Assembly: GCA_019057385.1 (NCBI GenBank)
Contig: JAHQJS010000004.1
Span: 96,001 to 160,000, forward strand
DNA: 64,000 nucleotides
Direction: 5' to 3'
Source of the DNA: Candidatus Borrarchaeum weybense
Lineage (GTDB): Archaea > Asgardarchaeota > Sifarchaeia > Borrarchaeales > Borrarchaeaceae
The notes beneath the pieces are model-generated. The model did not search any database, was not told where the DNA came from, and saw only the letters and a list, made by a program, of their open reading frames with translations. Positions 46,886 through 59,477 of the stretch are shown here, piece by piece (position 1 is the stretch's first letter; every line of letters begins with the position of its first letter). A program made the translations under genes and the position numbers.

Positions 46886-48334
46886 TTAATATTTCAAAAT
46901 GAATTCCTTCCTTTCGTTCCAGAATACATCTGGATTCCGTTGTTTGCCATACCCTAACCATTTATCGATTTTTACCCATAAGCGGTTCAACAAGGGAAAA
47001 TGTTTAATAAAAAATCGTGCGACACAATGTAACGAATGACGACTTTTCGTAAAGGGGCAAGAGGTGATGCAGACACTGCAGTCATTTCCATTGATTGTCC
47101 AGAAGTGATAGCAGGTCTCAGCGTTCACATACCATTTCAATACGCCAGGATTGTTTGATATAGTGGGACCTGACCACGATGGATCTCTTTCATAACTGAT
47201 TGACTGAGAGGGACAGGCTTCTGCGCACCGTTTGCATGTGCGGCAAAAATCGAGTGCTCCAAAATTGATTGATTTGTCCGGTACGAGGGGAAGATTGGTC
47301 AAGACTTTGCAGATTCTCACATTAGATCCAAATTGAGGGGTGATTAGTAACCCATGACGACCATATTGCCCTATTCCTGCATCAATGGCCATGGGCACAC
47401 TTAATCCAATATTATTCCCCGCCGGTATGGCATCATAGCCTAAGCCTCGGATAAACTCAGCAAGGCATGCTTGGATGAATGCCATGCGCGAATAACCATT
47501 GCCCGTCGCAAAGGCACCAGGGAATGCAGGGGTAGTTTGCAAAGCTTCTAGATCCATCTCAACGGCGACAACAATGGCGTTTTCAATATGATCGGGAATA
47601 TTAATGGGGTTTCCTTGTCTGTCGTGGGTATATAACCAGTCACGGTTGAGTTTGCAAACACCCACTAGTGCTGCCCCAAAGGCTTTTGCAGCCTGCTTCA
47701 CGATCTTTGTCATATTGTGGGGATCATCAATTATGACTTTTATGTCAGCGGGTTTTTCAAGTTCTACATCAAAACGTGCATCAATGGAGGCATTCAACTT
47801 CTTCCATGAAAAAGCTTCAGTAAAATGATCATAAACTGTCCAAGATGCTGAACTCAAAGCCTCATCAATTCTTGAATACCCTTTCTTGTTCAGGCGAAAA
47901 ACTTCTTCAAGATGAGCATGAACTCCAACTTGGTAATCTGCAAAACTAGGATCATTAAGCATCCGGGCAAAAATGATATGTTCCTCAGTGAAGGGACGGT
48001 AAACGCTGTGGTTGATAACGTAAGGACTTTGCTTCCAATGGTTCAAGTCCTCTGAAAGAGTCAAATCCTGTGTAGATTGCCGAGGTTTTACGATTTCGAC
48101 GCAGTAATCGATTGCTGCCATTGGACAATTGTCTAAACAGCGTCTGCAACTTCCACAGTTTCTAGACTTAATAATTGGCTTTCTGGTCTCGTTCGAGATG
48201 AAGATTGGACGGTGAATCGTAGACCGTTTTACAACTGGACATACATCTACACATTTATAATGGCAGCATTCTGGATCGCATTTTGTGTAGTCAACGCGGA
48301 TTTCTCTTTTGGTTTGTTTAGTTGTCGTTTTCAG
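46886..48334 (-). CDS. rdhA: Reductive dehalogenase (RdhA/QueG-like) with N-terminal ABCE1/RLI-like 2x[4Fe-4S] domain
   Basis: FGAALVG, YSRM, SVP.AIDAGIGQYGRHG..ITPQFG..VR, FCRTCKRCAEACP, C..CITSCP; the frame stays open 71 codons upstream of the ORF-track ATG (48121) to CTG at 48334. Confidence 0.85.
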   Translation of the reverse strand: MKTTTKQTKREIRVDYTKCDPECCHYKCVDVCPVVKRSTIHRPIFISNETRKPIIKSRNCGSCRRCLDNCPMAAIDYCVEIVKPRQSTQDLTLSEDLNHWKQSPYVINHSVYRPFTEEHIIFARMLNDPSFADYQVGVHAHLEEVFRLNKKGYSRIDEALSSASWTVYDHFTEAFSWKKLNASIDARFDVELEKPADIKVIIDDPHNMTKIVKQAAKAFGAALVGVCKLNRDWLYTHDRQGNPINIPDHIENAIVVAVEMDLEALQTTPAFPGAFATGNGYSRMAFIQACLAEFIRGLGYDAIPAGNNIGLSVPMAIDAGIGQYGRHGLLITPQFGSNVRICKVLTNLPLVPDKSINFGALDFCRTCKRCAEACPSQSISYERDPSWSGPTISNNPGVLKWYVNAETCYHFWTINGNDCSVCITSCPFTKSRHSLHCVARFFIKHFPLLNRLWVKIDKWLGYGKQRNPDVFWNERKEFILKY

Positions 48335-48548
48335 TCACTCCGATATATGAGCTACTTGTTTTTTGCTTAGGGTTTTATCAATTGCTTTTAGACATTATTA
48401 GTTTCATACTCATGTTCTCTATATCGAATATCTTATGACGGTTTAGGTATTAAGCTTAATAACTGTTTGCACGTTCAATAAGAACGCTATTTACAAAAAA
48501 TAGAGCCTCTTAGATTGACTAAAGAAAAAAAACTATTGATTTTTTTAT

Positions 48549-48953
48549 CTTTTCTACGCAAGAAGTCCCCCCAACTTATTGGGGGGATGAATTGAGGTCT
48601 GACGTTGCTCACACAACCCTTTCTGCGAGCATAGGGGGTGGTGTACCCAACCTCGGGTGGTGTTTTAATGACGGGTACTCGCTAGTTCCGCCGCTCCCAA
48701 CATCAGGGGAGTAGGTTCTTTTCTCCAAGGTTATCAGTCAGTACTCTACGATGATCACTGAGAGTTTCCTCTCTGTTTAAACCACCATTTACAGAGCACG
48801 GGAATAGAGAGGCATTCCGTGGTGTGTTCTTGAACTCTCCTGATAACGTAGATACCGTAATAGGTGTTTCATCACGACTTCCCTTAGGTTAATCAACCAA
48901 TTACTCTCGATTCTCACGGAACAAGTCCCCTAACATGTTAGGGGGTGATTGAC
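48549..48953 (+). mobile_element. 405-bp non-autonomous IS200/IS605 element carrying an IscB-type omegaRNA, no ORF
   Basis: TTTAT at 48544-48548, then N8-CGCAAGAAG and a CCCCCCAA..TTGGGGGG hairpin like the tnpB IS; right-end hairpin CCCCTAAC-AT-GTTAGGGG ending TTGAC. Confidence 0.85.
48690..48953 (-). ncRNA. HEARO / IscB omegaRNA scaffold (orphan)
   Basis: Minus strand reads GTCAATCACCCCC..GGGGACTTG...GTTGATTAACCTAAG...CTACGTTATCAGG...CACACC.CGGAATGC...GCTCTG...TTAAACAG...CAGTG...AACCTTGG, the order of motifs I recall for HEARO RNAs; 3' boundary approximate. Confidence 0.75.
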
Positions 48954-48981
48954 GTTTCTTTTATACACATCTAAAAAAGAA

Positions 48982-49099
48982 TGCTTAATCCTTAATTATT
49001 AGGTAAGGAATTCTTTTGCAACTGAAAGCGAAAATCGTTGAAAAACCAACCTATCAAATCATCTTTCAATCCTTATTAGGTAAGGAATTCTTTTGTAAT
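48982..49099 (-). CRISPR. Orphan mini-array B: two variant repeats and one 40-nt spacer
   Basis: 49063-49099 CTTTCAATCCTTATTAGGTAAGGAATTCTTTTGTAAT; 48982-49022 is the same variant with a 4-nt insertion; spacer 49023-49062. Confidence 0.85.
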
Positions 49100-49357
49100 C
49101 TACTTTCATTTTGCTTTATAAATTCCTCTATTATTGTGTTTAATATTTATCTTCTTCAGACATCTCAAATGTTTAATTAATTGCTTCTTTACAGGTTTTA
49201 ACTGATAACGGAACTAGCAATACATAACTCTTTCTTTTTGAGAAACCTCTTCTTTTAACACTTTTTCTATCCAAAAAATGGCAAATAATGAAAATAGAGT
49301 ATTTTAGTAAATAAAGAAATCTGCCACTTTCTCCTGAAAGGGTTCCTGCAGATTAAA

Positions 49358-50866
49358 TTAAATTTGAATTCTTGTGCCTTCGCCACCGTGCATGGACTTT
49401 CTAACACGGATTTGAGCGACTATTGGTGAGCGTACACAAACACCGGAAATAGTAGCAACGCCTTGAGGAAGAAACGGCAATCGATCAATGTCTTCATTTG
49501 AGCCAAGATTCAGAAAGGGTCTTACATAGTCAAGATCGGTTTTTGAATCAATTCTGAGCACTATTTTAGAACCACATTGGCTTAAAACATCTTTGTCCAA
49601 ACCGACTAGGCGCTGACTTGTGACACAGATGCCCAGTCCAAATTTCCTCCCTTCTCGTGCAAGACGTCTAAGCATTTTCTTACTATAACAGTCTAGCGCT
49701 TGCGGTGCGAAGCGATGCGCCTCTTCAATAATTACAAAACACGGTGGAACAAGATTCCTTTTCCTTGCTAGAAATATTTGTTTCATTACGATCGCAGCAA
49801 GTATTTGACGCACCCGTTCATCAATATCCTCTGAAAGGTCGATGATACATAACACACCTGGTTTAACTAACTCTTGTATATCAATTCCTTTTCCAAGAAT
49901 ATTCAATTCCTCAATTAAAAAAATACGTCGAATTACTGAAAGCGTTGTACGTGAATTGAATTTCCATTCCTCTGCAGTGGTTTTGATAGTATCCACAAGT
50001 TTTTGGATATCATAATCTTCAAGTTGTTTTAGTTTTTGTAGAGCAAGATAGAGAAGGTCCATTTGTGTTTCTGACATTGTAGTGATTTCAGACAATGCCT
50101 CTACGTCTAAGTCTTTAAGACGAATCGAAAGTTCATTTGTTTTAGTATTTCTTTCACGTGGAGGTGTATAAACCTTAGTGGGGTATCCTTGCGGATTAAC
50201 TCCAAAAAACTCCATTCTATGGAGTTCTTCCTGATTTGTACGCCGTATGGAGTTATATTCTCCGTGTGGATCTATGATTATAACTGGAATATCATGTTCA
50301 AGCAATTCTTCAATTATTACACCATTTGTGTAGGATTTACCACTTCCTGTTGAGCCTAATACCGCAAGATGGTATTTTACAAGTTTCTCTATGTCTGTTA
50401 CAATGTTAATCGGTGTAGGACCACGCATTTTACCGATATAAAGGCCATTAGAAGTTAATCCTAAGAACTTGCTTAGGAGTGACGTTCTTGCAGAGTATAT
50501 ATAATCGCCTGGTTCTGGAGAAATTTCAGGTGGTAAACGTTTATCATTTTCTAAGACACCGACAATATGTACCCGTGCCATTCGCCATCGCCCAATTCTG
50601 ACGGGTAATCGAGCAGAAATCTTTAATGAACGTTCTAAATGATCACGAACAAAATTAGGATCGTTATAATACGCATTTGAGGCTTGTATTAAATAGACGC
50701 GTCCAATGATGACTCGTGTGCCTACAGGTACTTCAACATAAGACCCTACTGGAAGATCGACCTCATCTTTTATTTGAAAATGAAATTCTAAGTGGTTTGG
50801 AGTGCGTCTATCACTCATTATTATACCAAGTTGACACACCGTGTCATCTTCAGTATGTTTTTCCAT
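49358..50866 (-). CDS. herA: HerA-family ATPase/translocase
   Basis: N-terminal HAS barrel, HLAVLGSTGSGKS, IIDPHGEY, IIEEAH, REGRKFG, SQR, LP.G.A. Confidence 0.92.
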   Translation of the reverse strand: MEKHTEDDTVCQLGIIMSDRRTPNHLEFHFQIKDEVDLPVGSYVEVPVGTRVIIGRVYLIQASNAYYNDPNFVRDHLERSLKISARLPVRIGRWRMARVHIVGVLENDKRLPPEISPEPGDYIYSARTSLLSKFLGLTSNGLYIGKMRGPTPINIVTDIEKLVKYHLAVLGSTGSGKSYTNGVIIEELLEHDIPVIIIDPHGEYNSIRRTNQEELHRMEFFGVNPQGYPTKVYTPPRERNTKTNELSIRLKDLDVEALSEITTMSETQMDLLYLALQKLKQLEDYDIQKLVDTIKTTAEEWKFNSRTTLSVIRRIFLIEELNILGKGIDIQELVKPGVLCIIDLSEDIDERVRQILAAIVMKQIFLARKRNLVPPCFVIIEEAHRFAPQALDCYSKKMLRRLAREGRKFGLGICVTSQRLVGLDKDVLSQCGSKIVLRIDSKTDLDYVRPFLNLGSNEDIDRLPFLPQGVATISGVCVRSPIVAQIRVRKSMHGGEGTRIQI

Positions 50867-50882
50867 AGCTCTCTATCCTATA

Positions 50883-52298
50883 TCACTTTTCTTGAGATAG
50901 CTCTCCCATTTGTGAGATATATTCTTTATATCCCAATCGAAAAGAACTGTCAACGATTTTTGATATAGATGTAACTAATTTCCGAGACAAATCTTGCGCA
51001 ATAACCATACTGCTGGGCCCATAGATAGAGCCTTGCATCTCTGGAACAAATAAAGTATATGCATAGTTCGCAATTTTTTCCTGTTCTGTAACAGGGTCAT
51101 CTAGACTTAGAAATTCTAATCGAATAACATGAGGATCTCTTTTAAGATAGAACTCGTATAAATTGTCTATATCTGGCCTCCCCTTCTCTTTTCTCCTTTT
51201 TACTAAACAAGTTAGATCGCGGTCGCGCAGTAGATTATGAAATAGATAAAAATCGCCACTATCTTTGAGATTGGGAAGTAAAGCAGCCTTTATACTTTTT
51301 GTGAAAATATTATCTTGTGGTTCCCTCACCACACCAACCCATAAGATGTTCTTTTTTTCGCTTTCTTGTTGTATTTTTAAAAATAACTTATAAGCACTAT
51401 TCCTAAGTTCCATCAGTTTTCGGCTTTGTACAAAAATTCCATGTGGGAAAAGTGATCCGTTATGAAACAAAATCTCTAACTCATCGCCCCACTGATCAAT
51501 AGTCTCTAAATCCGCTTTATAATGTTGAATTTTCTCAAGAAATCGTGCTGCAATCGAGCGTCCTGCACTTAATAACTCTGGGAACTCGCTGACTAATTCA
51601 TAAAATGGCTCATCGGCAGTAAAAGGATCATTACCTGAAAAAGTTTCTGTGCGAGGATATTCTATTACTTCAGATTTGTTATGAATTAGCATATTTTTCT
51701 CAAAATATCCTATATACGAAACAGAACTTAGATATGTGATTGTAAAAAAGGCGAAATCATATAAAGTGATATCATTTTTTTTACGGATTGCAGATGAACC
51801 TGGAACATAAATATTGTCTAACATAACATTTTTTGCCATCTTTTGCATTATTATTGTCTCACCTATCAAATCGTCAAATGGAGGCGCAGAATTTGATAAC
51901 AGAGGATAAAAATCCTCTGCATATTCGTAGGCAAAATTTGCTTTCTCTATAACTTTTCTCACTTTGTCTGCAACAGGTTTTGTTTTTAAAATTGAGATGT
52001 ATGCTGGAGAAAAGAATTTAGTCAATTGTAACTGATACGGCTCAATATCTTGGACGTTTATAGCGGATTCTACAAATTCTAAATCTACATCGTACGTTCC
52101 ATGCCCTTTATAAGATAAAACGCCGAGAACAGTTAGATCGTCAATATAATCTCTGATTAAACGCTCAGATAAATCAGCGCGTTCAGCCAAACTTTTTACA
52201 TTAACTTCTCCTTCTTCCAAAAAGAGGTTTGTGCAAGTATTGATCAGAAACATGAGTCGAGCTTTGTATGTTGAACCTGTGCGTCCCATGATTTTCAC
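50883..52298 (-). CDS. wHTH-fused NurA-like protein, predicted catalytically inactive
   Basis: N-terminal wHTH (LAERADLSERLIRDYIDDL...G); NurA-ordered motifs HNGSL, VGVVR, D..LF..LL, FY, RLE, P.....AQ; directly upstream of herA. Confidence 0.75.
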   Translation of the reverse strand: MKIMGRTGSTYKARLMFLINTCTNLFLEEGEVNVKSLAERADLSERLIRDYIDDLTVLGVLSYKGHGTYDVDLEFVESAINVQDIEPYQLQLTKFFSPAYISILKTKPVADKVRKVIEKANFAYEYAEDFYPLLSNSAPPFDDLIGETIIMQKMAKNVMLDNIYVPGSSAIRKKNDITLYDFAFFTITYLSSVSYIGYFEKNMLIHNKSEVIEYPRTETFSGNDPFTADEPFYELVSEFPELLSAGRSIAARFLEKIQHYKADLETIDQWGDELEILFHNGSLFPHGIFVQSRKLMELRNSAYKLFLKIQQESEKKNILWVGVVREPQDNIFTKSIKAALLPNLKDSGDFYLFHNLLRDRDLTCLVKRRKEKGRPDIDNLYEFYLKRDPHVIRLEFLSLDDPVTEQEKIANYAYTLFVPEMQGSIYGPSSMVIAQDLSRKLVTSISKIVDSSFRLGYKEYISQMGELSQEK

Positions 52299-52432
52299 CG
52301 AAATATATTTCCAATATAGATATATATACTCAATGCTTGCTTAAATAAATTGTGCGTTTTTAGATTGGTATAGAAGTATAAGAAAAGAAATTACATGATG
52401 CATTATACATTGGTTGAGAATAATCTAATTTA

Positions 52433-55400
52433 CTTTCAATCCTTATTACTTAAGGAATTCTTTTGCAACCAGAAACAAAATGGACTATCTATGATCGAAC
52501 TAAGTGAAATTTCAATCCTTATTACTTAAGGAATTCTTTTGCAACCAAAATGAATGAATTAACATCTCTTGAACTAAAATATTGATTTCAATCCTTATTA
52601 CTTAAGGAATTCTTTTGCAACAAACAAAATGAGAAATTATGAGAAATTTTTGAGCACTAAAATTTCAATCCTTATTACTTAAGGAATTCTTTTGCAACTC
52701 ACTCATTCAACCAACTCCTATTTTTATAGGTGCTTTAATTTCAATCCTTATTACTTAAGGAATTCTTTTGCAACATCTCCAGATAATCGCGATTCCCCGG
52801 TTGCCATCTTGAATTTCAATCCTTATTACTTAAGGAATTCTTTTGCAACTGTACCTGGTACATTTGGAAGCTTTTTCCAGGTAATATCAATTTCAATCCT
52901 TATTACTTAAGGAATTCTTTTGCAACCTATAGCAGAAACATCAGGTACTACTACTCCTGGTACTCCTACAGAATTTCAATCCTTATTACTTAAGGAATTC
53001 TTTTGCAACAAAAGGAGGGGATAACATTAGAAAAGAGATTGTAGTTGTATTTCAATCCTTATTACTTAAGGAATTCTTTTGCAACTTAAAAGTAAGACTC
53101 CCCCCCAGATGGCCTCTAACGTTGATTTCAATCCTTATTACTTAAGGAATTCTTTTGCAACTAATTGCATGAGAACATCATTTCACGCGCCAACAGCATC
53201 TTGTATTTCAATCCTTATTACTTAAGGAATTCTTTTGCAACTTAATTTTGCCTTAAATGGTTTAGAAAGACTTCTATCACAATTTCAATCCTTATTACTT
53301 AAGGAATTCTTTTGCAACTAGCTCATACGGTCTTGCCACTGGAAATGGTGATTTATGAAAATTTCAATCCTTATTACTTAAGGAATTCTTTTGCAACATA
53401 TCCTCATGGTACTGTTCGGTACGAGCATCGCCGTGATTTCAATCCTTATTACTTAAGGAATTCTTTTGCAACGCGATTTAATTACACAATTACAAAAAGT
53501 ACATAATGAAAATTTCAATCCTTATTACTTAAGGAATTCTTTTGCAACATTTTTGAAACTAACGAAGATACGGTATAATTCTATTTATTTCAATCCTTAT
53601 TACTTAAGGAATTCTTTTGCAACGAAAATCATACAATTAGATTAGTAGTAGCAAAACCCTAATTTCAATCCTTATTACTTAAGGAATTCTTTTGCAACAT
53701 TCCGCCAAAGATCCCGCACTTCCGATTGTAAACAAATATTTCAATCCTTATTACTTAAGGAATTCTTTTGCAACGGAGGACGTGAGCAGCGTCCCCCTCA
53801 TTGGTGATGAGTATTTCAATCCTTATTACTTAAGGAATTCTTTTGCAACCATGAACCATAAAATAAAAACAAAGCATTGGATTAATGATTTCAATCCTTA
53901 TTACTTAAGGAATTCTTTTGCAACGCAATCGAGAAATTAGATCGCTATGAAGTAGTAAAACTAATTTCAATCCTTATTACTTAAGGAATTCTTTTGCAAC
54001 CTCAAATACAAATCAATGTATGAAGTGTCTAACAATTGAATTTCAATCCTTATTACTTAAGGAATTCTTTTGCAACGTATCTAATTCATGTTGGAGGAGC
54101 TTAAAGGCATCCTTTTTATTTCAATCCTTATTACTTAAGGAATTCTTTTGCAACTTAGCGTCATTAATCTCGTTACCCATACCATAACTGAAGATTTCAA
54201 TCCTTATTACTTAAGGAATTCTTTTGCAACTAAAGAATGAATGAACAGCAAGCGAAAGCCTGTTTAAATTTCAATCCTTATTACTTAAGGAATTCTTTTG
54301 CAACCCAGAGTGCGTGATTACAACACCATTCAGTATTTACTAAATTTCAATCCTTATTACTTAAGGAATTCTTTTGCAACTATCCGGTTAGATATCCCTA
54401 CTTCTGGTAGTGGATGGAATTTCAATCCTTATTACTTAAGGAATTCTTTTGCAACTGTGAGGAGGAAAAAAATGGCAACTAAAATCTGTACAAAAATTTC
54501 AATCCTTATTACTTAAGGAATTCTTTTGCAACTACTGTAGTTGAAGCGTTTCTACACTTATTATTGTTTTATTTCAATCCTTATTACTTAAGGAATTCTT
54601 TTGCAACCTAAGTTTCTAAGGTAGGATAGTTCATAATGTTCTTTTATTTCAATCCTTATTACTTAAGGAATTCTTTTGCAACTCGGTAGTTGCCCAGATA
54701 TCGATGGGCGCGCTTTATGACACATTTCAATCCTTATTACTTAAGGAATTCTTTTGCAACTTTACAGACACAAACTGGAGATTCACCAACAACCAGAGAT
54801 TTCAATCCTTATTACTTAAGGAATTCTTTTGCAACCTAAGTTTCTAAGGTAGGATAGTTCATAATGTTCTTTTATTTCAATCCTTATTACTTAAGGAATT
54901 CTTTTGCAACTCGGTAGTTGCCCAGATATCGATGGGCGCGCTTTATGACACATTTCAATCCTTATTACTTAAGGAATTCTTTTGCAACTTTACAGACACA
55001 AACTGGAGATTCACCAACAACCAGAGATTTCAATCCTTATTACTTAAGGAATTCTTTTGCAACGTAACTATACGCAATATGCATCTGATTTCAAATTATC
55101 AATTTCAATCCTTATTACTTAAGGAATTCTTTTGCAACACTTGTTTTCATGGTTTTCATACATTCTACATGGATCCAAATTTCAATCCTTATTACTTAAG
55201 GAATTCTTTTGCAACCTTGTTTTTTCATCCTGCGAGATTAGTATATAATGTTAAATTTCAATCCTTATTACTTAAGGAATTCTTTTGCAACTTTGGTGGT
55301 AGTTGTACCTATAATCTCTACGTACTTGAATTTCAATCCTTATTACTTAAGGAATTCTTTTGCAACTTTGTTGGAAATTTTCCACCAAGGAACTCGAAAT

Positions 55401-56129
55401 AATTAAATTTCAATCCTTATTACTTAAGGAATTCTTTTGCAACTTGTTTATAATCATAGTTCTTATGGCGAGATCAAGATAATTTCAATCCTTATTACTT
55501 AAGGAATTCTTTTGCAACGATATCCATTCATGAACAATACTTCGAGTTTATCTTTAATTTCAATCCTTATTACTTAAGGAATTCTTTTGCAACATGAGAT
55601 AAAAAAGAAACGAGAAGAAGAGGAAAGACAAAAAATTTCAATCCTTATTACTTAAGGAATTCTTTTGCAACCCGAAGGAAAGTCTCCGTAGTCTCCAGAT
55701 CCACTACCAGTATTTCAATCCTTATTACTTAAGGAATTCTTTTGCAACTTTCTCAACGCGCTTTTTATACGTCGCCTTTAACTCTTATTTCAATCCTTAT
55801 TACTTAAGGAATTCTTTTGCAACGAACGACAGAGCAAAAAGCCCTATTGTTAGCAACGAAAGAATTTCAATCCTTATTACTTAAGGAATTCTTTTGCAAC
55901 TCCGCCAGATTTTAGGAGAAAATTAAAACTTCTTAGAGAATTTCAATCCTTATTACTTAAGGAATTCTTTTGCAACTTAATTGTAAATTCGATTCTACAA
56001 AGACCTGCTGCTTTTATTTCAATCCTTATTACTTAAGGAATTCTTTTGCAACCTAAGATAAACTCAAAACCAATATCTGAATATGTTGTATGATTTCAAT
56101 CCTTATTACTTAAGGAATTCTTTTGCAAC
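52433..56129 (-). CRISPR. CRISPR array, 49 repeats (37 bp, GTTGCAAAAGAATTCCTTAAGTAATAAGGATTGAAAT) and 48 spacers
   Basis: Repeats counted by eye; spacers about 37-46 nt; the ATTGAAAT 3' end and the variant terminal repeat at 52433 put the leader on the right. Confidence 0.98.
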
Positions 56130-56678
56130 CCTAGTTTATATTGAAGATAAGATAGGTAAAAAACCTTATGGTGCACCCTTTTCAGAGGCTGTTTGTGCTG
56201 GAGGGGCAATTGAGCTCTTCTTTATAAATACCAGCAGAAAACGCTCTCCAGGGAAGCCTTTATGACATTGCTCCTTTGGGTATGACACTGCCATTTTTGC
56301 TGGTCGTGCTTTTGATCACCTCCTTATAAATACCAGCAGAAATAGCCCTTTATAAAGGCTCTAAAAAAGTGCAAAATCGAGCGGCAAAGAGTTCAGACTG
56401 CACACTAAGAAAATTAAAGGAAAATCAACTGATTTTAACACCTAAGAGGTTGCTATCTACCATTTTATTAAATAATGCTACTTAAAACACATTTAAAATT
56501 CATTAAATCCTTTTGCGCCTCATATGAATACTATGAATAAAGAAGCCGACGTATTTTTGCCATAAACACCAGTTCCCAGTTAAATGATACTCACAACTTT
56601 TATCGAGCGAAGACTTTATATAGCCATTATGGAAATATATTTCTATATAGTACCTATATTTCAATAAGTTGTGATCAT
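56130..56678 (-). promoter_or_regulatory. CRISPR leader and divergent promoter of the adaptation operon
   Basis: Non-coding stretch between the first repeat and the cas operon; contains duplicated TTATAAATACCAGCAGAAA (56222-56240, 56324-56342). Confidence 0.75.
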
Positions 56679-57590
56679 ATGCTTCAAATATTTCCCAAAC
56701 TCAATCTTGCACAAACTCAAGCAAAAAGTGACTTGCGTATAAACAATTATTTCTGGAAAGAATTTATGGATTTTTATGTGCCTTGCCTTTATATGAAAGC
56801 AGGATATCACCACTTTTCCTGTATATTGCATGGATCGCTCTATTTTAACCTCGGTAAACAGTTTTGTGTTAATTGTGGTGTTCATATCGCCCCTCATACC
56901 TCTCTATCTCTTTGCAATGCATGTTATCAAACTAAAGATACGGCACATCTTCTCTGTATTTTAAAGGGAGCTGGTGCCCCCTATGCCAAACTTTGCGATT
57001 TAGAGAATCCACCTTGTCACGATCTTTACAGAATAGAATCATTTTGCAAAACTGAACACATAGTATACATCGGAAGATTTGGATCACTTTTCAAAGTTGG
57101 TGTAACACGGAATTCACGGAAAGAAAATTCGGGTATCCATTCAAGGTTCTTAGATCAGGGACTTGATGAAGCCTTCATCATTTCTCAAGAACTTACACTT
57201 CCAGAAGCGCAAAGACTTGAAGCGAAATTATCTACGCTTCTAAGAATTCCCAAGTGGATCAGCTTCCCAGAAAAAGTGGAAAACATCATAAAAAATGCTA
57301 AAATGAATGATTCTTCAGATAAAGACGCCATTTCCGCAAAAATGAACTCAATTAGAACAATGCTGACCAAATTCGTACCAGAAGAGGCTGTTTCTCACGC
57401 TATTGTTGATCGCGCATATATGATTGGATACATCCACACTGATTGTCTTGAATGGATCTCACGACCCGAACAGTTAGAAGGAGAAGTAGTTGTAGCTAAA
57501 GGAAATGTTTTGATTACGCGACTTGGCTCAAATTATTTAGTTTATGATTTGGCCAAACTTCAAGGGCGAGAAATATTACTCGGAGGCTAA
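56679..57590 (+). CDS. DUF2797-like Zn-binding / GIY-YIG-like protein
   Basis: CVNCG...CNACY...C..EHIVYIG....KVGVTR......RFLDQG..EA...EA..LE; ends LEG.V...KG; stop 2 nt before the cas1 ATG. Confidence 0.75.
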   Translation: MLQIFPKLNLAQTQAKSDLRINNYFWKEFMDFYVPCLYMKAGYHHFSCILHGSLYFNLGKQFCVNCGVHIAPHTSLSLCNACYQTKDTAHLLCILKGAGAPYAKLCDLENPPCHDLYRIESFCKTEHIVYIGRFGSLFKVGVTRNSRKENSGIHSRFLDQGLDEAFIISQELTLPEAQRLEAKLSTLLRIPKWISFPEKVENIIKNAKMNDSSDKDAISAKMNSIRTMLTKFVPEEAVSHAIVDRAYMIGYIHTDCLEWISRPEQLEGEVVVAKGNVLITRLGSNYLVYDLAKLQGREILLGG

Positions 57591-57592
57591 AT

Positions 57593-58615
57593 ATGATCGT
57601 CTTCGTCTCAGATCACGGGTCAAAAATTGGAAAACATGGTGAACGTATAAAAGTCACATCGCTTACTGGTGAGAAAAAAGAATATTCCGCTGTAAAAATC
57701 TCAGAGATTGTCATCGAAGCCAATGTTTCTATAAGTTCTCAAGTTCTCAAACTTTTAGCTCGACATGGTGTTCCTGTTCTTTTTGTTGGCAATCATAGGC
57801 CTTATGGCATTTTCCATCCATATGTCTCTCATGGGACAATTCTGACACGAAGAGAACAACTAACTGCGTATCATGATCAAAGAGGCACAAAAGCAGCCAT
57901 TGCCTTCGCTAAAGCAGCCATTCAAAATAAAGCATTCTTTATCAACTCACTCTTAAGAAATCGAAAGAAAACTCAACCAGAATTAGCTCAATCTTTAGAA
58001 GAAACGTATGAAAAAATAATCCAATTATCTAGTCTTGTGGATAACCACAAAGGTCATGTTGATATGATTAGAAACGCTTTGATGGGCATCGAAGGTAAAG
58101 CTACCGATTATTACTTCGAACAACTTAAAAAAGTGATACCGGACGACTTTCGTTTTAATGATCGAAATCGACGGCCTCCTCAAGATCCTGTAAATTCATT
58201 GCTCAGTTATGGTTACTCTGTATTAAATACTCGTGTGCTCTGCTATGTGATCTTAGCTGGACTTGATCCATTTTGTGGCTTCTTACATGCAGATCGATCT
58301 GGGAAACCATCTCTTACTCTTGATATCATCGAAGAATTTCGCCAGCCTATCGTAGACAGGATCGTGCTAAAGCTTGTTACCAGACGCATGATTGACCCCA
58401 ATAAAGACTTCGAAAAGAAAGATGGTATGTGCTTTATGTCTCAAAACGCTAAAACAACTTTGCTTGAAGCGCTGTTCGAGCGCTTTAGGACTTCAGTAAA
58501 ATATCACGATAAAAACGTGAAATTTGAAAATGTGATCTTTAAACAGACACGGCAACTTGCTGCATTCTTCATGCATCGTATTCCTGATTATGTACCGTTT
58601 ATCCCAGGGTGGTAA
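57593..58615 (+). CDS. cas1: CRISPR-associated endonuclease Cas1
   Basis: LMGIEG.A...YF, R.RRPPQDPVNSLLSYGY, GLDP..GFLH, SL.LD..EEFR. Confidence 0.97.
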   Translation: MIVFVSDHGSKIGKHGERIKVTSLTGEKKEYSAVKISEIVIEANVSISSQVLKLLARHGVPVLFVGNHRPYGIFHPYVSHGTILTRREQLTAYHDQRGTKAAIAFAKAAIQNKAFFINSLLRNRKKTQPELAQSLEETYEKIIQLSSLVDNHKGHVDMIRNALMGIEGKATDYYFEQLKKVIPDDFRFNDRNRRPPQDPVNSLLSYGYSVLNTRVLCYVILAGLDPFCGFLHADRSGKPSLTLDIIEEFRQPIVDRIVLKLVTRRMIDPNKDFEKKDGMCFMSQNAKTTLLEALFERFRTSVKYHDKNVKFENVIFKQTRQLAAFFMHRIPDYVPFIPGW

Positions 58616-58902
58616 CTATTCCCGATCAAATTGTCACTTATGATATCCCTAATGACTCCTTAAGAAAGAAGATATCCGATAAATTGCTCGATTACGGCCT
58701 TTCCCGAATTCAATTCAGTGTCTTTCAAGGACGCCTCAGCAGGAATATGATCGAAATGCTGGCGATTGAAATAAAGGAATTGTTAGATAAACAAGATGGG
58801 GACATCCGTATCTTCACAATTTGCGGAATTTGCCTGAAAAAGACTCTTCTCATCACCAATAACCCTACTCCAGTTAAAGGAGGCATCTTGCAAGTATGTT
58901 GA
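58609..58902 (+). CDS. cas2: CRISPR-associated Cas2
   Basis: VTYDI, L.DYGL.RIQFSVF.G, DIRIF.IC..C. Confidence 0.95.
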   Translation: MVTIPDQIVTYDIPNDSLRKKISDKLLDYGLSRIQFSVFQGRLSRNMIEMLAIEIKELLDKQDGDIRIFTICGICLKKTLLITNNPTPVKGGILQVC

Positions 58903-59477
58903 TATCAAAAAGTCTCTGGTTCACTCCAGAAGCCGTCCGCCAACATGTGTATTGCCCTCGAATTACATACTTTAGATATGTAGATGATACTTCTGTGCAA
59001 ATGACGATAAAAATGAAAAAAGGCGTAGATGACCACGAAAAAACGTTACGCGGAAAAAATACTTCTAATAGAAGAAGTAATGTTATCCGATATTATAACC
59101 TTAGACTGGAAAACCCGTATTTCCGCTTGTATGGCTTGTTAGATGTTGCAGAAGTAAAGGATAGTGAAATATATCCCGTAGATCGAAAAACTGGTAAAGC
59201 CCCTGAACATGGAGTTTATCGCCCTCATCGATTTCAGTTAGTTGCAGAAGCGTTTCTCATAGAAGCTAATTTCGGAAGAGACGTCTCTAAAGGAGTTATT
59301 GAATATAGGAACGCAGGGAGGAGAGTGGTAATTCTCTCTATAAAGGATAAATTAGAGTTCATAAATATATTAAATAAAATGAGACAAGTTGTTTCTCAAG
59401 AAAAATTACTGAAACCAACTCCTCACCTCAGAAAATGCACGGATTGTGAATATTGGAAAAAATGTAGAAGAGTTTAA
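58896..59477 (+). CDS. cas4: CRISPR-associated Cas4
   Basis: YCPR, G..DH, LYGLLD, PVDRKTG, Q...A, C.DCEY...C. Confidence 0.93.
   Translation: MLISKSLWFTPEAVRQHVYCPRITYFRYVDDTSVQMTIKMKKGVDDHEKTLRGKNTSNRRSNVIRYYNLRLENPYFRLYGLLDVAEVKDSEIYPVDRKTGKAPEHGVYRPHRFQLVAEAFLIEANFGRDVSKGVIEYRNAGRRVVILSIKDKLEFINILNKMRQVVSQEKLLKPTPHLRKCTDCEYWKKCRRV

Follow-up and report, generated by a model that had tools for sequence, protein, structure and literature searches.

The window analysed here is a 64,000-nucleotide (nt) stretch of Candidatus Borrarchaeum weybense DNA (contig JAHQJS010000004.1, positions 96,001 to 160,000 of the forward strand). On its minus strand lies the gene for P0004, a protein in which a winged helix-turn-helix (wHTH) domain precedes a NurA-like domain whose catalytic residues have been replaced. 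A gene for a HerA ATPase comes next, and a CRISPR array (of short palindromic repeats, clustered and regularly interspaced) begins 143 nt upstream of the nurA-like ATG; because repeat copies are also found beyond herA, the gene pair sits inside a CRISPR island (Table 1). P0004 is probably an accessory factor or a regulator of CRISPR genes rather than a nuclease. The minus-strand open reading frame 50883-52298 is stop-free in translation. Its probable start is the ATG at 52289 (MGRTGS...), three codons within the GTG at 52298 from which the first-pass annotation had opened it: both the gene call and all homologues open at MGRTGS, and the GTG is thus best regarded as an upstream in-frame alternative. 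Residue numbering is that of P0004 throughout.

Table 1. Coordinates of the nurA-like gene, its domains and the surrounding CRISPR island in the window, with DUF2797 copies at four other loci.
Feature	Coordinates	Strand	Basis or remark
Gene for wHTH-NurA-like protein P0004, 468 amino acids (aa)	50883..52289	minus	gene call and homologue N-termini
N-terminal wHTH, residues 1 to ~70	52080..52289	minus	models, Foldseek, Pfam HTH matches in relatives
NurA-like domain of RNase H fold, including its helical extensions at the N- and C-terminus, residues ~103-468	50886..51983	minus	Foldseek, hhalign, MAFFT, VIA-align
Cognate HerA (ATPase of 502 aa), downstream of nurA-like gene by 16 nt	49358..50866	minus	DUF87, HAS barrel, Walker motifs
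Palindrome GAAATATATTTC (12 bp), in 14-mer TGGAAATATATTTC on minus strand	52300..52311		candidate operator
Second palindrome copy, TGGAAATATATTTC on plus strand	56632..56643		
CRISPR array, 49 repeats of 37 nt	52433..56129	minus (presumed)	sole degenerate repeat at 52433
Two further CRISPR repeat copies beyond herA	48986..49099	minus	one perfect over 3' half, one with two changes
DUF2797	56679-57590	plus	operon 56679..59477
cas1	57593-58615	plus	operon 56679..59477
Putative cas2	58609-58902	plus	size and synteny with L023 alone
cas4	58896-59477	plus	operon 56679..59477
DUF2797, locus L023	5663-6568		
DUF2797, locus L015	3805-4701		
DUF2797, locus L016	20484-21374		
DUF2797, locus L017	9883-10782		

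The kinship of P0004 with NurA is remote. The protein has no match to the Pfam NurA family (PF09376) even at E≤1, and searches with it of NCBIfam, PADLOC and the PDB (phmmer and hmmsearch) returned no NurA match, just weak helix-turn-helix matches; a coiled-coil match from the direct sequence searches was judged spurious. Among 15 full-length homologues, one matches Pfam NurA, at 1.4e-4. When the alignment of these 15 was used as a profile against 1.8 billion representatives, 92 proteins were recovered, with a tail at 1e-12 to 1e-4 made up of 330-390-aa proteins, and all six of the tail proteins scanned match Pfam NurA. Aligned with 34 canonical NurAs by hhalign, the family scores 99.35% with an E value of 6.5e-21 over 298 columns.

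The AlphaFold2 model of P0004 has a predicted local distance difference test (pLDDT) value of 80.8 and a predicted template modelling (TM) score of 0.77, and its top Foldseek match is the NurA of Sulfolobus solfataricus (SsoNurA; E 2.1e-7). Superposed with VIA-align, residues 103-462 of the model align with residues 8-335 of SsoNurA chain 2ygk_A (Z 20.8, root-mean-square deviation [rmsd] 3.7, 278 aligned), a span that takes in the entire NurA, helical extensions included. The corresponding values are Z 18.8, rmsd 4.0 and 276 aligned for Thermococcus kodakarensis NurA and Z 17.2, rmsd 3.5 and 263 aligned for Pyrococcus furiosus NurA; Argonaute PIWI and EndoV domains reach Z ~11. P0004 has the NurA fold with an RNase H-like core, far above chance, and the earlier NurA-like assignment, based on motifs picked out by eye, is borne out by both the profile comparison and the superposition. 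All of the strings that it quoted (VPGSS, FHNGSL, GVVR, PSSMVIAQ, GDFYLFHNLL, YEFYLK and IRLEF) are present in the translation. P0004 thus has in common with NurA (SsoNurA, 2YGK; PfuNurA, 3TAZ; TkoNurA, 9X1M; PF09376) the fold of the whole domain and the structural motifs GS..PH, D..L...L, FYLK and PS....A. It differs in falling below the Pfam threshold, in bearing ~100 additional N-terminal residues with the wHTH and in the replacement of all catalytic residues.

SsoNurA requires D58, E116 and D133, with K202 and Y298 alongside (PMC3326311), and the canonical set of 34 NurAs keeps GxDGG, an invariant Glu, LLDGS, GVV(E/K)DSR and PSVLIEAD. In P0004, the motif I Asp (GxDGG) is replaced by S166 (in a column that holds S, A, G or C across the family), the motif II Glu by H256, the motif III Asp (LLDGS) by N277 and the motif IV Glu/Asp (IEAD) by I430/Q432, the last two motifs falling in variable columns; this mapping is identical by hhalign and by an independent MAFFT alignment. 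None of the four metal-ligand columns has a conserved acid among the 15 closest homologues. K202 and Y298, when mapped via the alignment with canonical NurAs (not with Sso itself), are likewise unconserved: the Lys position is R322 in the four closest members alone and variable elsewhere, and the Tyr position is I422 in a variable column.

These replacements agree with the first-pass annotation, which had proposed that the catalytic residues were lost. Its motif alignment was correct in placing no acid at the catalytic positions; for motif I, however, it set the Asp against P163, three residues out of register, an error that leaves the conclusion intact because residues 160-168 contain no acid. 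Two acids were considered as substitutes and rejected. A pairwise BLASTP register offers D433 as the motif IV Asp, but hhalign and MAFFT agree on another register that matches two conserved Ala, and D433 is present in the four closest members alone. D158 (of the 'LDD' before strand 1), a candidate for motif I, precedes the strand, and the more divergent members have E, H, R, K or A in its place. Judged from the sequence, P0004 lacks the Asp-Glu-Asp(-Asp/His) metal site, and nuclease activity has presumably gone with it.

The scaffold of the domain is retained. Residues common to NurAs that are kept include G278, P282-H283-G284, D346, D358 and the FY strand, and conserved residues specific to the family include R244, R249, D326, E368, E379 and a proline-rich EPF...GEPFYEL loop. 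H283, D346 and G278/G284 are invariant in all 31 members, and D326 and E368 are present in 30 of 31. Conservation within the family is highest over residues 212-240 (~51570-51656), which read P..F.G.EPF..GEPFYEL.TDFPELL; this segment lies partly in a low-confidence loop of the model between strand 3 and helix 1, has no canonical NurA counterpart and could be an interaction motif.

Such conservation might be expected of a protein that is still a nuclease, with a remodelled site built from His256, His283 and a nearby Asp or Glu (D326, D358 or E368). H256 stands exactly on the position of the catalytic Glu and is conserved in the core family as well as in a sister group (P0063, P0064, P0091, P0093 and P0104) that keeps three Asp, and a sub-branch (P0025, P0029, P0034 and P0039) has a Glu beside the motif I position and another in motif IV. 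The pocket may therefore have been remodelled rather than have decayed. However, divergent members carry Q, R, K or L in place of H256, and H283, D346 and D358 (as Glu) are not replacement ligands, because canonical NurAs conserve them too. Together with the 15 closest members, in which no metal-ligand column holds a conserved acid, this makes a remodelled nuclease decidedly unlikely.

The wHTH comprises helices at residues 5-26, 31-38 and 42-55 and a hairpin of strands at 58-62 and 65-68, both in the full model and in a separate model of residues 1-82 (pLDDT 83.7). Its Foldseek neighbours are all wHTH domains (IclR, IdeR, MarR, Z-alpha, TFE-alpha and the N-domains of O-methyltransferases), with TM-scores of 0.5-0.66 and E values of 6e-3 to 2e-2 that are modest, as expected at 70 residues. 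Pfam HTH_11, HTH_Mga and HTH_24 match 6, 4 and 2 of the 15 members, respectively, at E≤0.01. In the third (recognition) helix, R43 and Y48 are invariant in all 31 members; Y60, G62 and Y66 of the wing are conserved.

The models and Foldseek thus confirm that a wHTH precedes the NurA domain, as first proposed, but not that this protein gained it, since the fusion is common to sister groups. One of these, the group of five proteins that share H256, has the arrangement wHTH-NurA with Asp-His-Asp-Asp/His kept, followed by HerA. Two of its pairs with HerA (L029 1-3243 and L031 114-2728) adjoin a Dcm-like cytosine methyltransferase and an HhH-GPD glycosylase, or a TIR-domain gene, settings that look like defence islands. 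A second sister group (P0043-49) lacks the acids as well; in L030, HerA and cas6 come after it. At 4484-4493 of L030, 29 nt ahead of the start of this acid-less sister gene, lies another AT-rich palindrome of different sequence, CAAATATTTG, which may be that gene's own operator. In a quick, unrooted maximum-likelihood tree, the acid-less groups all fall on one side of a branch with a Shimodaira-Hasegawa-like approximate likelihood ratio test value of 92. Because a wHTH-fused sister group retains Asp-His-Asp-Asp, the fusion seems to be older than the loss of catalytic residues; a single loss fits the tree, which is no proof of it.

The promoter of the nurA-like gene contains a 12-bp palindrome, 8 nt past a TATA box (52320-52328) and 10 nt ahead of the ATG. 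A second copy is found 9 nt past a TATA box (56614-56622) and 35 nt ahead of the DUF2797 start, at the head of the adaptation operon. The 12-mer occurs twice in the window. Across the 4.18 Mb genome, the 14-mer that contains it is confined to these two promoters, and each copy is oriented as the gene that it precedes. Allowing up to two mismatches and up to 60 nt of upstream distance, the box is present ahead of the nurA-like gene at 14 of 16 distinct loci (perfect in 10), and box-bearing loci outside the window's lineage have 32-40% protein identity and unrelated flanks; in mononucleotide shuffles, approximately 36 such box matches arise per 314 kb. A second perfect copy is directly upstream of DUF2797-cas1 in the window, L023, L015, L016 and L017. 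In Asgardarchaeum abyssi (L019 9958-9988), the box is in tandem, with a perfect and a one-mismatch copy whose starts are 19 nt apart.

Most simply, the box would be the operator of the gene's own wHTH, as it accompanies the gene also at loci that have no cas gene nearby. Its position between the TATA box and the start, overlapping the expected transcription start, suggests that it acts in repression. A proposal of the first-pass annotation, that the protein regulates the CRISPR locus, gains comparative support from the conserved palindrome at its own promoter and at that of DUF2797-cas1.

The HerA of the window matches DUF87 at 2e-34 and contains a HAS barrel as well as both Walker motifs, A and B. 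Across seven aligned partner HerAs (63% mean column identity), Walker A, Walker B and a REGRKF motif are intact and invariant, and an intact HerA comes directly after the nurA-like gene in every locus read, at spacings that range elsewhere from small overlaps to gaps of up to ~20 nt. Archaeal HerA-NurA operons have the same gene order, nurA and then herA. The GP424-425 loop before the last helix of P0004 is conserved; in SsoNurA, the loop at this place bears a HerA-binding patch (PMC3326311).

A complex of P0004 with HerA was predicted with each protein given as an alignment. It scored 0.42 (best control 0.00), with contact agreement of at least 73% and partner pLDDT of at least 71 in the runs. 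Of 80 solved complexes, 58 reach the mark for a pass, as do 2 of 110 mismatched pairs, and scores of 0.60 or below that reach it belong to 7 of the 80 solved complexes and to both passing mismatches, so that the result offers weak support. HerA-NurA complexes have already been solved, and the pass may stem from likeness to them. The constant presence of HerA and this predicted complex lend comparative weight to another early suggestion, that the protein is a HerA adaptor.

The same evidence bears on whether P0004 could be an ordinary transcription factor, in which the NurA-like part serves for dimerisation or signal sensing and has no physical link with HerA. The wHTH fold and a conserved candidate operator at two promoters are what such a factor would have. 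It would leave unaccounted for, however, a HerA that follows in every locus and whose conservation exceeds that of the NurA-like protein, the conserved loop at the site of the HerA-binding patch and the passing score of the complex, and we consider it very unlikely.

A canonical nurA-herA operon is also present in the window's genome, on a different contig (C8, L010 6614-9282). Its HerA is 29% identical to that of the window, and its NurA (P0108; L010 8131-9282, minus strand) retains IDGG, the Glu of motif II (GEV), MDGS and IEAD. This operon is flanked by genes for CTP synthase, a RIO kinase and a DUF460 protein, not by mre11-rad50. The P0004 locus is unlike that of the canonical NurA of the HerA-NurA end-resection complex in being without a link to mre11-rad50.

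Around the pair, the CRISPR array is most likely transcribed toward the nurA-like gene, with the 550-nt gap 56130-56680 as its leader, because the degenerate repeat is the one nearest that gene and the repeat read on the minus strand ends ATTGAAAT. Within the presumed leader (56215-56345) there is an internal direct repeat (tttctgctggtatttataa...) with copies ~85 nt apart. The extra repeat copies beyond herA are in a 1.2-kb stretch without long open reading frames (48121-49358), and past the island, at 46886-48121 on the minus strand, is a gene for a reductive-dehalogenase-like Fe-S protein (PF13486, 7.5e-7; two 4Fe-4S motifs). On the other side, cas4 is followed by cas8b, cas7 and cas5, which identifies the system as type I-B.

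Pairs adjacent to CRISPR components are found in the window and at seven further distinct loci. The neighbours are the type I-B array and cas genes in the window, DUF2797-cas1-2-4-8-7-5-3 in L023, cas6-csa5-cas7-cas5-cas3 in L001, an array and cas6 in L003, a 78-repeat array ending ~560 nt upstream of the pair in L016, a small array in L018, type III genes and cas6 in L024, and cas6 and cas4-2-1 in L026. At L005/L013, no CRISPR array or cas gene is found within 8-10 kb of the pair. DUF2797 (~300 aa) is directly ahead of cas1, behind the shared palindrome, in five Asgard loci (Table 1); among the papers searched, those that mention DUF2797 draw no link between it and CRISPR in their titles or abstracts.

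All members of the family come from metagenome-assembled genomes of archaea, mostly of Asgard archaea (Baldr-, Jord- and Freyarchaeota and Asgardarchaeum), two being labelled Thermoproteota or Thermoprotei. Its distribution is patchy. Of the 151 genomes of the phylum, 18 carry it; by genus the count is 11 of 52, and no copy was found in the four genomes that share the window's genus. It is an accessory module scattered through Asgard archaea, nearly always beside CRISPR arrays or cas genes.

Taken together, these results suggest, with a probability that we put at about 55%, that P0004 is an inactive NurA that partners HerA, regulates its own expression and also controls the adaptation operon. 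In such a scheme, P0004 would dimerise and dock on the HerA hexamer, as canonical NurA does, and the two wHTH domains of the dimer would bind the palindrome, repressing both the protein's own operon and the adaptation operon. Engagement of DNA by HerA and the dead NurA would then alter repression, or the complex would pass unwound DNA uncut to the adaptation proteins. The pseudo-nuclease originally envisaged, with a NurA fold, replaced catalytic positions and a wHTH ahead of them, is supported at this level of sequence and model.

Several observations weigh against this reading. Besides the conserved H256, these include the L024 and L026 lineages, which lack the box, and the possibility that the palindrome is bound by another regulator. 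The genome count of the 14-mer (2) is little apart from that of its reversed control (1), and a 13-mer gives three genome matches against three for its reversed control, a count that is uninformative by itself; because these counts are not significant, the case for the palindrome rests on its position and its conservation across genomes. The complex prediction, finally, is a weak pass for a textbook pair.

A different role for the same pair would be that of a non-catalytic HerA cap with a direct part in acquiring spacers or in interference. Here the ring would let HerA load onto and unwind DNA ends for Cas4, Cas1-Cas2, DUF2797 or Cas3 to process, the wHTH being merely a general anchor to DNA or protein and the palindrome being bound by some other factor. 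The nuclease-dead NurA mutant D58A still activates HerA unwinding (PMC3326311), the pair strictly adjoins HerA and cas6 or cas1-cas2-cas4, and roles in adaptation have been proposed for the CRISPR-linked nurA-herA of Pyrobaculum (PMC3396285); in Sulfolobus, Csa3a co-activates adaptation genes and nurA/herA (PMC8616872). A cap would not, however, explain the palindrome at L005/L013, where no cas gene is near, or the invariant residues of the recognition helix. We regard it as rather unlikely.

A more specific version of the inactive, HerA-partnered regulator is a transcription switch that senses DNA ends. At rest, two winged helices on the GAAATATATTTC box would silence the protein's own operon and DUF2797-cas1-cas2-cas4. 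Free DNA ends, from an invading linear genome or as degradation products of Cas3, would allow HerA to load the ring onto them, and the repressor would quit its operators. We consider this rather unlikely, and the sensing of DNA ends, the third role that the first-pass annotation had put forward, is conjecture.

Other CRISPR-linked nurA-herA modules are known. Those of Thermoproteales occur with csm6 and have Pfam-positive NurAs (E 1e-7 to 1e-16; PMC3396285), and NurA/HerA are among the putative CRISPR auxiliary genes in a large-scale screen (Altae-Tran et al. 2023; PMC10910872). The nurA-(csm6)-herA module resembles the pair in the window in that a paralogous pair stands beside arrays in addition to a repair pair, as in the window's genome. 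It differs in having csm6 between the genes, where herA here directly follows the nurA-like gene, and no catalytic loss, wHTH or operator is reported for it (PMC3396285). In the literature searched, we found no account of a family of CRISPR-linked NurAs that lacks the acids, is fused to a wHTH and bears an operator.

Csa3a, a CARF-wHTH protein that regulates the type I-A adaptation genes of Sulfolobus islandicus (PMC5587795; summarised in PMC8616872), is another CRISPR-locus wHTH protein that is tied to adaptation cas promoters and to nurA/herA. Its sensor is a CARF domain, in place of which P0004 has a dead NurA, and Csa3a is an activator, whereas the position of the box suggests repression by P0004. 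Sir2-HerA, DUF4297-HerA and TdpAB (8WFD) each combine a HerA hexamer with a docking second protein, as proposed for P0004, and chain 8wfd_G of TdpAB is a structural neighbour of the model (VIA-align Z 14.3, rmsd 6.3, 275 aligned). These HerA anti-phage pairs recall the settings of the sister wHTH-NurA-HerA genes near a Dcm-like methyltransferase or a TIR gene. Their partner is a toxic or nucleolytic effector, in contrast to P0004, which has no recognisable catalytic site.

A 2026 review states that Asgard NurAs keep their catalytic residues and are uncharacterised (PMC13748450). This is true for the genome's canonical NurA and not for the P0004 family; the 'NurA homologues' counted in Asgard genomes are therefore not all repair nucleases. 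On the evidence of its sequence, P0004 would be a clean natural case in which an RNase H-fold nuclease has given rise to a pseudo-enzyme.

How cells time the acquisition of spacers is poorly understood, and to our knowledge the regulators of this process known in archaea are of the Csa3 type only. The module described here would combine an ATPase motor, a disarmed nuclease whose head reads DNA and a 12-bp box at the promoters of both the module and the adaptation genes. If the end-sensing switch were true, spacer acquisition would be induced exactly when its substrate is present, in an SOS-like circuit made from a disarmed repair nuclease.

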